In this document: positions 12,238 to 54,708 of the stretch, in pieces | Layout: each line of letters begins with the position of its first letter | How positions within the stretch are numbered: position 1 is the first letter of the stretch | The notes under the pieces: model-generated | Seen by the model: the letters and a program-made list of their open reading frames with translations, nothing else | Told to the model about the DNA's origin: nothing | Databases searched by the model: none | Program-made: the position numbers and the translations under genes | Assembly (NCBI GenBank): GCA_046538415.1 | Contig: JBKHIY010000013.1 | Span: 747 to 64,746, forward strand | DNA: 64,000 bases | Direction of reading: 5' to 3' | Source of the DNA: Candidatus Brocadiia bacterium | Lineage (GTDB): Bacteria; Planctomycetota; PUPC01; DSUN01

Positions 12238-13083
12238 GTGGAACGCCCCGTGACCTTCCGCAAGGACGGCCGCCTGGTGGGCATCCTGCACGAGCCCGAG
12301 GGCCAGGCCCGGGGCGCGGGCGTGGTCTTCATCCACGGCTGGTCGGGCTACCGGGCGGGCCCCCACCGGATGTTCGTGGAGGCCGCGCGGCGGCTGTGTG
12401 CCCAGGGCTACCACGCCCTGCGCTTCGACCTGCGGGGCCGGGGCGATAGCGAAGGCCAGGTGGCGGCCACGGACCTGGACGGAATGGTCGACGACGCGCG
12501 GGCGGCCCGCCGCTTCCTCCTCCAGGAGACGGCGGTGGCGGCCACCTACTGGCTGGGCATCTGCTCGGGCGGCAACGTGGCCCTGGGCGCCGCCTCGCTG
12601 GAGAAGGACGTGGACGGCCTGGTGCTGTGGTCCACGCCGCTGTTCGCGCCCCAGAAGAGCCGCGGCCAGGAGGCCGTGCGCCGGGGCATGTTCTTCGTGG
12701 AATACGCCAGGAAGCTCTTCCGGCGGGAGACCTGGGCCAAGGTGCTTCGGGGGCGGGTGCGCCTGGGCATCATCGCCCGCATCCTCTTCGGCCGCCGAGA
12801 GCCGGCCGAGGGCCAGCGGGACCCCAAGGACTCGCGGCGCGACGTGATGGCCGACCTGCGCGGCTACCGCGGCAGGGCCCTCTTCGTCTACGGGAGCAAG
12901 GACGACGAGGCGGTGGGCGCCCCCGGCTACTACCGCGCCTTCTGTCGCCAGGAGGGCATCCCCGCCCGCTTCCACACCGTCGAGGGAGCCAACCACAGCT
13001 ACTACTCGGTGGCGTGGACGGAGGAGGTGCTCGACCGGACCCTGGCGTGGCTGGCCGAGGCGTCGGAGGGGCAGGCGTCGTAG
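12238..13083 (+). CDS. Alpha/beta-fold hydrolase
   Basis: 281 aa. GVVFIHGWSGYRAG and a nucleophile-elbow-like GICSGGNVAL (GxSxG variant) are present. The start codon is GTG. Confidence 0.7.
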   Translation: MERPVTFRKDGRLVGILHEPEGQARGAGVVFIHGWSGYRAGPHRMFVEAARRLCAQGYHALRFDLRGRGDSEGQVAATDLDGMVDDARAARRFLLQETAVAATYWLGICSGGNVALGAASLEKDVDGLVLWSTPLFAPQKSRGQEAVRRGMFFVEYARKLFRRETWAKVLRGRVRLGIIARILFGRREPAEGQRDPKDSRRDVMADLRGYRGRALFVYGSKDDEAVGAPGYYRAFCRQEGIPARFHTVEGANHSYYSVAWTEEVLDRTLAWLAEASEGQAS

Positions 13084-13108: not shown

Positions 13109-13153
13109 CAAGACGAAGACCTCCCCTTCCGACCACGGGAAGAGGAGGTCTTG
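13109..13153. terminator. Bidirectional stem-loop between convergent genes
   Basis: An inverted repeat AAGACCTCC...GGAGGTCTT surrounds an inner CTTCC/GGAAG repeat and is followed by TTGGTTT on the + strand. It lies between the convergent hydrolase gene and the histone-fold gene. Confidence 0.4.
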
Positions 13154-13177: not shown

Positions 13178-13393
13178 CTAGAGGTCCTGGGGCTTGACCG
13201 TGGCGCGCTTGTTGGCCTTGGCCCGCTCGATGGCCTTATCCAGGGCGCAGGTCACCATGTCGTTGAGCGCCTCGAGGAGCTCACCGGACATCATGGCCTT
13301 CTTGCCGCGGATGTAGGCTCGCACCTTGGTGCCCACGACCAGCGTATCCTTGGGCGCTTTCTTCTTCTTCGACTTCTTCTTCGACTTGGCCAT
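13178..13393 (-). CDS. Bacterial histone-fold protein (archaeal HMf-like singlet histone)
   Basis: 71 aa reading MAKSKKKSKKKKAPKDTLVVGTKVRAYIRGKKAMMSGELLEALNDMVTCALDKAIERAKANKRATVKPQDL. The C-terminal half aligns by eye with archaeal HMfB (…[33 protein letters not shown]). There is a lysine-rich N-terminal tail. An ATG with the Shine-Dalgarno GGAGAG sits 24 codons inside the annotated ORF. Confidence 0.55.
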   Translation of the reverse strand: MAKSKKKSKKKKAPKDTLVVGTKVRAYIRGKKAMMSGELLEALNDMVTCALDKAIERAKANKRATVKPQDL

Positions 13394-13476
13394 TCTCTCC
13401 TCTACCCCCTTCTGGAAAAAGACACCGGTCAAACGGGTGCGCGGCACGCGCCGGCCCGCTACCACACGCTGCCCCC

Positions 13477-13505
13477 TATATAATCGCGGGGGCCGGGCTT
13501 GTCAA
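13477..13505 (-). promoter_or_regulatory. Sigma70-consensus promoter for the histone-fold gene
   Basis: The minus strand reads gattttttgc-TTGACA-agcccggcccccgcgat(17)-TATATA. There is a perfect -35 box, a 17-nt spacer, a 5/6 -10 box and an upstream T-tract resembling an UP element. This is rare in a 70% GC background. Confidence 0.55.
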
Positions 13506-13566
13506 GCAAAAAATCGCCGTAGCGGGCTGTTCCTGGGAGCATGAGCCGATTCGCGGCACTGCGCAC

Positions 13567-14661
<1,095 letters not shown>

Positions 14662-54170: not shown

Positions 54171-54708
54171 TCCTCCCTCGCGGCCCGTCTTCCACGCCAG
54201 GGAAGAGCGCCGACCACCCTTTCGCCTCGCCGACGCCGCTTCCCGGCCCTCATCTCGCTCCCGCGCGCCTCGTCCTCAGGCGGCCTCACGCCCGCGGCGA
54301 ACTCCGCCAAAGCCGCTGTCATTCGTCCTGCCGACGCGCACGCCACGCTGCCGCCCGCCGCCTGTCCGCATCCTGCGCTCGCACCGCCCACGCCACCACG
54401 CGCAGCTGTCCCGAGAACGCCAATCGGGCGCCAGAGCTTCCACCCGACGCCATTTCCTCCGCCGCTCGTGCTTGCCCACTTGCTCACGCGCCGAGACCGA
54501 GCCACACGCCGCCCACGCGCCGTATCTCCTGGCACACAGCGGCTTCCGGGAGTCGGATCAGTGGATGCCTACGGTCTGATAATGTCTGTTATGTCGCGCT
54601 CCGGCTTGCGCGGCCCAGCTAGAGCCCCAAAGCCCTCCTGCGGTCCCGTCCGTGCGATTCCATCATTAGGTCAAGGGAATCGAGGGCCCGGACGGCAGCG
54701 GTTGCGAC

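Follow-up and report, generated by a model that had tools for sequence, protein, structure and literature searches.

The locus and its product

We describe here a small gene in a 64-kb stretch of contig JBKHIY010000013.1 from a Candidatus Brocadiia bacterium of the Planctomycetota; this whole stretch is referred to as the window. The coding sequence occupies positions 13178..13393 of the minus strand, stop codon included, and encodes a basic protein of 71 residues (7.8 kDa, isoelectric point 10.26) that reads MAKSKKKSKKKKAPKDTLVVGTKVRAYIRGKKAMMSGELLEALNDMVTCALDKAIERAKANKRATVKPQDL before the stop. It is identical to an NCBI entry from a metagenome-assembled genome (MAG), 'hypothetical protein ACLF0G_04350 [Candidatus Brocadiia bacterium]'. 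Exact copies of the gene are also present on Logan contigs of SRR29060561 and SRR21542051. An original prediction, made from the letters of the DNA, had proposed a 71-residue reading frame with a lysine-rich N-terminal tail, and exactly such a frame is found, with nine lysines among residues 1-15. As detailed below, the product is a new, uncharacterised histone with the sequence signature of the face-to-face (FtF) type, annotated until now as a hypothetical protein and belonging to a family that has already been described.

The protein falls into two parts. Codons 16-71 (13181..13348, minus strand) make up the histone fold, as delimited by an AlphaFold2 model, Foldseek and an alignment of 48 homologues, and codons 1-15 (13349..13393, minus strand) encode the tail MAKSKKKSKKKKAPK, which is predicted to be disordered. 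The gene lies between an alpha/beta hydrolase gene (12238..13083, plus strand) and a gene for a MoxR AAA+ ATPase (13567..14661, minus strand), which face each other as the original prediction had them. It is co-directional with the MoxR gene, 173 bp downstream of it, and convergent with the hydrolase gene.

The G+C content of the gene is 61%, compared with 71% for the window, and its G+C fraction at third codon positions (0.93) is the same as that of the neighbouring genes. The gene is therefore native, and the dip in G+C stems from AAG lysine codons and not from a foreign origin. A mechanical list of open reading frames also holds a longer frame of 95 residues starting from a GTG at 13465. 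This candidate was rejected, as the upstream in-frame peptide is conserved in no orthologue and the GTG lies some 5 nt from where transcription probably starts; together, these observations identify the ATG at 13393 as the start codon.

A histone fold with a truncated third helix

Domain libraries pass over this protein. Pfam returned nothing significant, the sole match (Sp38, E 0.14) being spurious, and there was no match to the histone family PF00808; with the NCBIfam model archaea_histone (NF043032) the protein scored a sub-threshold 15.2 bits against a cutoff of 50. This outcome explains the label 'hypothetical protein' and made sequence and fold searches of the PDB necessary to place the protein. 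Using the single sequence, phmmer aligned residues 10-70 with HLp of Leptospira perolatii (9QT0; E 1.3e-13), followed by weak matches to HBb/Bd0055 (8CMP, 8FVX; E 0.02) and HTkC (9F2C; E 0.07), and beyond these three the PDB held no credible match. With a profile of the 48 homologues, the E-values became 1.6e-22 for HLp, 2.6e-13 for HBb and 1.7e-11 for HTkC, and the nucleosomal archaeal histones appeared as borderline matches (E 0.3-0.4).

The structural comparison gives the same ranking. The AlphaFold2 model of the single chain, built on the alignment of 48 homologues, has a mean predicted local distance difference test score (pLDDT) of 80, with values of about 87-94 in the core and below 50 for residues 1-12. 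It consists of helix alpha1 (21-30), helix alpha2 (39-60) and a one-turn alpha3 (68-70), which is the alpha1-L1-alpha2-L2-alpha3 arrangement of the histone-fold superfamily; with alpha3 confined to 68-70 and the chain stopping at L71, it has the build of the alpha3-truncated class. Foldseek superimposes the model on HLp (9qt0) with a template modelling (TM) score of 0.93, an rmsd (root-mean-square deviation) of 1.0 Å and 45% identity. Next come HBb (rmsd 0.9 Å, 34% identity) and HTkC (rmsd 1.1 Å, 28% identity), and the remaining PDB matches listed are histones or histone-fold proteins. The 71-residue protein is a genuine bacterial histone fold, and HLp is its closest solved relative.

The claim of a bacterial histone fold in the original prediction is thus borne out by both the sequence match to HLp and the superposition on it, and the outcomes named there as refuting it, an HU-like or a ribosomal-protein fold, did not arise in the sequence and fold searches. 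The attached label 'HMf-like' has to be dropped: going by its signature residues, the protein belongs to the alpha3-truncated face-to-face class and not to the nucleosomal class, from which it is set apart by the NF043032 score below cutoff, the truncated alpha3 and the sequence RAT in place of RKT. An alignment with HMfB made by eye had picked the right region, namely the second half of alpha2 together with L2 and the RxTxxxxD motif, but direct homology to HMfB was rejected, since BLASTP gives no match even at E 100 and the link is seen only via profiles and fold comparison. The protein is not a DUF1931 pseudodimer either, having a single fold in 71 residues and no match to PF09123 at E up to 10; weak DUF1931 matches occur in 15 of the 48 relatives, with a best E of 3.8e-4.

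The face-to-face signature

In the classification of Schwab et al. 2024, prokaryotic histones with a truncated alpha3 comprise the FtF histones, the bacterial dimers and a remainder of minor groups (PMC11390915). FtF histones are formally defined by a closed toroidal tetramer, predicted or observed, and their hidden Markov model logo shows R48, N52, R54, T56 and D61 as conserved residues; of these, R48 and N52 make dimer-dimer contacts, and bacterial dimers lack both (PMC11390915). In the protein described here the signature reads R57-x3-N61-x-R63-x-T65-x4-D70, with spacing exact to the logo, and all five residues are invariant across the 48 homologues (alignment A1). Every sequence-level feature of the FtF class is present, and the loss of Arg and Asn that marks bacterial dimers is not found.

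Alignment with the solved relatives assigns probable roles to these positions. R57, N61 and R63 correspond in the phmmer alignment to R49, N53 and R55 of HLp, and the pair R63-D70 to R55-D62; in HLp the former are the tetramer-interface residues and the latter is the 'RD clamp' that shapes loop L2 (PMC12701072). R57 also aligns with R45 of HTkC, where the substitution R45A converts the tetramer into a dimer (bioRxiv 10.64898/2025.12.06.692711). In HTkC and in a predicted Haloferax tetramer, this interface Arg forms a bond with the carboxylate at the other dimer's C-terminus. The present chain ends with D70-L71-stop, one residue past the clamp Asp, and a PQD-x-stop ending was found in 87/87 loci examined; an ending one residue after the Asp fits what such an Arg-carboxylate salt bridge requires.

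The same residues bear on a different assembly, in which the protein would be an HBb-like dimer histone that bends DNA or coats it end-on and forms no wrapped tetramer. Homology to HBb is clear (profile E 2.6e-13; Foldseek rmsd 0.9 Å with 34% identity), 'bacterial dimer' histones are also present in Planctomycetota (PMC11390915), and the tetramer is deduced here from relatives. A head-to-tail fusion of four copies, folded as a single chain from the single sequence with no alignment, reached a pLDDT of only 53.8 and showed spurious beta-strands in place of alpha1, and this model was discarded as meaningless. Against the dimer, R57 and N61 are kept in this protein and in all 48 relatives, whereas the phmmer alignment places Ser and Asp at these positions in HBb; HLp also outranks HBb clearly, with a phmmer E of 1.3e-13 versus 0.02 and an identity of 45% versus 34%. 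We therefore consider an HBb-like dimer unlikely. It is probable, in our judgement, that the protein is an alpha3-truncated FtF nucleoid-associated histone that would, by homology, form a tetramer and wrap DNA, and that is expressed from its own conserved transcription unit.

A putative DNA-wrapping ring

HLp is a tetrameric FtF histone that wraps about 60 bp of DNA (PDB 9QT0/9QT1/9QT2; Hu et al., Nat Commun 2025, PMC12701072). Crystals show it bound to DNA, and it reorganises the nucleoid of E. coli (PMC12701072). By homology with HLp and HTkC, tetramer formation and DNA wrapping can be proposed for the planctomycete protein; a function for its tail and a high abundance in the cell are proposed as well. 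Two monomers would pair into a head-to-tail histone-fold dimer through their crossed alpha2 helices, as in these two relatives, and a pair of dimers, joined at both dimer-dimer interfaces, would make a closed, ring-shaped tetramer. At each interface R57 may reach the L71 carboxylate of the opposing dimer and N61 the opposing R63, and the R63-D70 clamp would keep loop L2 in shape. About 50-60 bp of DNA could then run round the positively charged rim, contacted by alpha1 through its N-terminal end (G21-T22-K23) and its basic residues R25 and R29, and by the L1 and L2 loops with G37 and T65.

HLp touches DNA with A13-S14-K15, K17, K21, T27, G29 and T56-T57 (PMC12701072), and the equivalents here are G21-T22-K23, R25, R29, M35, G37 and A64-T65. 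The alpha1 contacts and those of the 'paired ends of helices' are retained, and two loop threonines are lost relative to HLp.

The tail departs from the fold just before alpha1, on the DNA-binding face. Four disordered tails with nine lysines each would exit the ring beside the DNA-binding face and add a charge of +36 per tetramer. Most likely they would provide additional non-specific neutralisation of phosphates or reach to neighbouring DNA and so aid compaction.

A variable lysine-rich tail

The 15 residues of the tail carry no acidic residue and a net charge of +9, compared with +4 for the 56-residue core. To place this tail among its relatives we drew on 216 species-representative genomes that encode one, of which the 80 listed are nearly all Planctomycetota MAGs, and on 84 distinct proteins. 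In these 84 Planctomycetota relatives the segment before alpha1 has a median length of 7 residues, typically MAKKKES, and ranges from 4 to 41 residues; it is at least 12 residues long in 20 of them and lacks any basic residue in five. The tail in the window sits at the long, highly charged end of this continuum. Positive tails are common among FtF histones (PMC11390915).

Tails of 38-41 residues, made of KKVAKK or AKKAAP repeats, were observed in three cases (L072, L073/L078 and L058), all from Phycisphaerae/Sedimentisphaerales. These repeat tails resemble histone H1 or bacterial H1-like proteins.

The charge of the tail allows the roles to be turned round, with the tail as the main module and the fold as a mere scaffold. 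The protein would then be a condenser or bridger in the manner of H1, Hc1 or protamines, for instance during a given stage of the life cycle or under stress. The net charge is indeed concentrated in the tail, and the H1-like repeats of some relatives point in the same direction. But the length of the tail is unconserved, with its low median and the five proteins devoid of a basic tail residue, whereas the 48 relatives show no variation in the fold, its DNA-binding residues or its tetramer residues. An invariant core next to a variable tail suggests that the conserved function resides in the core and that the tail is accessory, which makes a tail-driven condenser very unlikely. A separate reading, in which the variable Lys/Ala/Pro tail acts in this planctomycete lineage as a regulated, eukaryote- or H1-like module through reversible lysine acetylation or bridging between tetramers, is a tentative idea to which we give somewhat more room, while still doubting it; if true, planctomycetes would possess a tunable histone-based chromatin. 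Planctomycetes are known for unusually condensed nucleoids.

A probable conserved transcription unit

Upstream of the gene lies a putative sigma70-like promoter on the minus strand. It comprises a perfect -35 hexamer TTGACA (6/6; 13500..13505) and, 17 nt further on, a -10 hexamer TATATA (13477..13482) that matches TATAAT in four of six positions, with the A at position 2 and without the T at position 6, so that the two hexamers together match in 10 of 12 positions. A T6 tract resembling an UP element (13508..13513) stands just upstream of the -35 hexamer. The original prediction had called this promoter near-perfect; its hexamers, spacing and upstream T-tract are all there, but the praise is too high for a -10 hexamer with 4/6 matches, and a stricter sigma70 scan of the window did not call the promoter, as the -10 hexamer lacks T at position 6. 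Allowing at most one mismatch, the pattern TTGACA-N17-TATAWA occurs once in the G+C-rich window and in 0 of 100 dinucleotide-preserving shuffles.

Comparison of eight orthologous loci (the window and L003-L009) shows how well this promoter has been kept. The -35 hexamer lies inside a block, GCTTGACA, that is invariant in all eight although the surrounding intergenic DNA has diverged. TATAWA, kept in seven of the eight loci and replaced by TAAAAA in L008, follows 17 nt after the block (16 nt in L003, where the script read TAATAT); A/T-rich sequence precedes the -35 hexamer within otherwise G+C-rich DNA, and 83-97 nt separate the -10 hexamer from the ATG throughout. Outside the clade of the window (the window and L001-L009), 72 further upstream regions were scanned, those of the Phycisphaerae/Sedimentisphaerales relatives included. 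TTGAC[AT] occurs within 300 nt in only ten of them, and none of the ten shows the GCTTGACA-N17-TATAWA arrangement of the clade at 83-97 nt; promoter-like TTGAC[AT]-N16 with a 5/6 -10 hexamer is found in L012 and L032. As more distant relatives lack it, the motif is specific to the clade of the window.

If transcription starts at the A that lies some 7 nt past the -10 hexamer, the 5' untranslated region (UTR) would span about 77 nt (13394..13470, minus strand). The Shine-Dalgarno sequence announced in the original prediction is present as GAGGAG at positions -9 to -4 (13397..13402, minus strand); it is specific to the locus in the window, and the orthologues have just a purine-rich stretch there. 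A GGGGG box at -16 to -12 (13405..13409, minus strand), recognised in the orthologue alignments, is invariant in the 5' UTRs of all eight loci; at 12-16 nt before the start codon it lies farther upstream than a typical Shine-Dalgarno sequence would. We also considered a structured RNA in the 5' UTR and rejected it: Rfam gave no match at E up to 1, and RNAalifold on the 5' UTRs of five orthologues returned a stem that was weak and whose covariation term, at +1.48, was unfavourable, so that covariation does not support a structure. On the plus strand, positions 13477..13484 read TATATAAT and contain a perfect TATAAT facing the opposite way. Upstream of this hexamer the plus strand shows no -35 hexamer to go with it, and it is therefore probably a by-product of the palindromic TATATA.

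Downstream, the space that separates the histone gene from the convergent hydrolase gene contains a G+C-rich hairpin with a 15-bp stem (13116..13152). It begins 26 nt past the histone stop codon and probably serves as a terminator in both directions. Its U-tract is weak on the histone strand, and in 8/8 orthologous loci a strong hairpin of this kind comes after the stop codon, several of them with a T-run. Bounded by the conserved -35/-10 promoter and the terminator-like hairpin, and with a 5' UTR of about 77 nt, the histone gene looks like a monocistronic, conserved unit. The conserved promoter and the relatives together suggest that it is probably expressed strongly and constitutively, as a main chromatin protein.

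Gene neighbourhood and balance of evidence

The surroundings of the gene are conserved as well. In all four orthologous loci examined for gene content (L003-L006), genes for a PQQ/TPR/PDZ protein, MoxR and the histone follow each other in this order and converge with those for the hydrolase, a radical SAM protein, RodA and PBP2. In the window the segment 9300..19264 includes the PQQ beta-propeller/TPR/PDZ protein, of about 1500 residues, and the radical-SAM protein, which is of the Radical_SAM_N2 type. These conserved neighbours show no evident functional link to the histone. A tblastn search for a second histone or an HU protein in the 64-kb window gave only chance-level matches; one of them, at 54275..54418 (E 0.21), was rejected as it falls in no credible open reading frame.

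That the histone fold does not organise DNA at all, as proposed for DUF1931, and serves perhaps as a protein-protein adaptor of the MoxR system is highly improbable: the PDB labels HLp a 'DUF1931 domain-containing protein', 15 of the 48 relatives have the weak DUF1931 matches and the histone gene always stands just downstream of MoxR in the loci examined, but the protein is one fold of 71 residues and no pseudodimer, has no DUF1931 match of its own, retains basic residues in alpha1 (K23, R25, R29), the Thr of L2 and an isoelectric point of 10.3, is encoded by a gene with a conserved promoter and terminator of its own, and has as closest relative HLp, with its DNA-bound crystals and its effect on the E. 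coli nucleoid.

Several observations speak against a DNA-wrapping FtF histone with its own transcription unit. DNA-contact or interface residues of HLp are changed at five positions (T27->M35, T56->A64, S52->A60, T61->Q69 and F63->L71). The -10 hexamer is without its usually conserved final T, and promoter rules in Planctomycetota are poorly known. Read-through transcription is possible from MoxR, which lies co-directionally upstream, and the view of HU, IHF and other nucleoid proteins is limited to 64 kb of the genome.

Distribution and significance

Bacterial histones occur in less than 2% of bacterial genomes (PMC12701072), in keeping with the remark in the original prediction that they are rare and only recently characterised. 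Planctomycetota is one of the four bacterial phyla in which FtF histones chiefly occur (PMC11390915; PMC12701072), and both the presence of the FtF family in this phylum and its positive tails have already been published. Our profile search of 1.84 billion representatives yielded 2317 matches at E <=1e-3, 456 of them at <=1e-10. In the full-text literature, FtF histones and Planctomycetota are paired only in the Schwab and Hu surveys and in the HTkC preprint, and the search found no experimental work on any planctomycete histone. The bacterial histones studied by experiment are only HBb of Bdellovibrio and FtF histones of Leptospira, namely HLp, characterised biochemically, and the protein of L. 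interrogans, which is abundant and essential.

The profile matches also reveal variations on the theme. Many of the best ones (P0049, P0051, P0053, P0055, P0058 and others) are proteins of 115-150 residues with two tandem alpha3/FtF-like folds; each copy of these 'doublets' keeps the R..N.R.T....D pattern, making them natural pseudodimers distinct from DUF1931. Some variants (P0050, P0065) have N-termini that resemble signal peptides, and P0176 (268 residues) has a Cys-rich, zinc-finger-like N-terminal region. Six loci (L013, L018, L056, L016, L031 and L070) come from records labelled Candidatus Saccharibacteria or Actinomycetes/Actinomycetota MAGs. As the other listed loci are nearly all from Planctomycetota, these labels may be binning or labelling errors.

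The locus leaves existing knowledge of the FtF family unchanged. What it offers is a cleanly delimited planctomycete example, with the full FtF signature and with a promoter, 5' UTR and terminator conserved over eight loci, and a case that current annotation misses for want of a Pfam match and under the label of a hypothetical protein. Its tail is one of the more highly charged in the clade, making the protein a reasonable candidate to learn what positive tails add to a wrapping tetramer. The locus is likewise suited to asking if the nucleoid of Planctomycetota is organised mainly by histones.

Comparison with known histones

With the archaeal nucleosomal histones (HMfB, HPhA; PF00808) the protein shares the superfamily, the RxTxxxxD motif and the alpha1-L1-alpha2-L2-alpha3 order, and HPhA and the Asgard HHoB appear as weak matches in the profile and Foldseek searches. 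The nucleosomal proteins differ in their full-length alpha3 and longer alpha2, in carrying RKT where R63-A64-T65 is found here, and in forming open hypernucleosomes through a single four-helix-bundle interface; neither a BLAST match to HMfB nor a Pfam match connects the two. DUF1931 pseudodimers (PF09123; Aq_328, PDB 1R4V) have two folds per chain and are devoid of the DNA-binding residues, whereas the basic alpha1 is kept here.

HBb/Bd0055 of Bdellovibrio bacteriovorus (8CMP, 8FVX, 9EZZ), a small and abundant bacterial chromatin protein of the 'bacterial dimer' type, has the same truncated alpha3 fold and RD clamp at 34-35% identity. HBb has Ser and Asp in place of the interface Arg and Asn, acts as a dimer by bending DNA or binding end-on, and carries no Lys-rich tail. 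HTkC of Thermococcus kodakarensis (9F2C) has the truncated fold (rmsd 1.1 Å), the RxTxxxxD motif and, in the place of R57, the tetramer-critical R45. It differs in its mere 28% identity, in a Glu at the position of N61 and in its coexistence with the nucleosomal histones HTkA and HTkB, and archaeal FtF histones are generally without tails (PMC11390915).

The best parallel is HLp. Differences do exist: its extension is short, with about 7 unresolved residues, and the aligned part (AQNAEK) is not Lys-rich, in contrast to the planctomycete tail of 15 residues with nine Lys; several of its loop and interface residues differ from the M35, A60, A64, Q69 and L71 present here; its host is a spirochaete and not a planctomycete with 71% G+C; and the Leptospira gene neighbours are SMC, MAP and DUF350 instead of MoxR and the hydrolase. 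Both proteins have one histone fold, some 56 residues long and ending in a one-turn alpha3 (45% identity, rmsd 1.0 Å), with a disordered N-terminal extension in front of it. They share the basic alpha1 residues, the same tetramer residues (R, N and R), the RD clamp and a C-terminus that ends one residue past the Asp.

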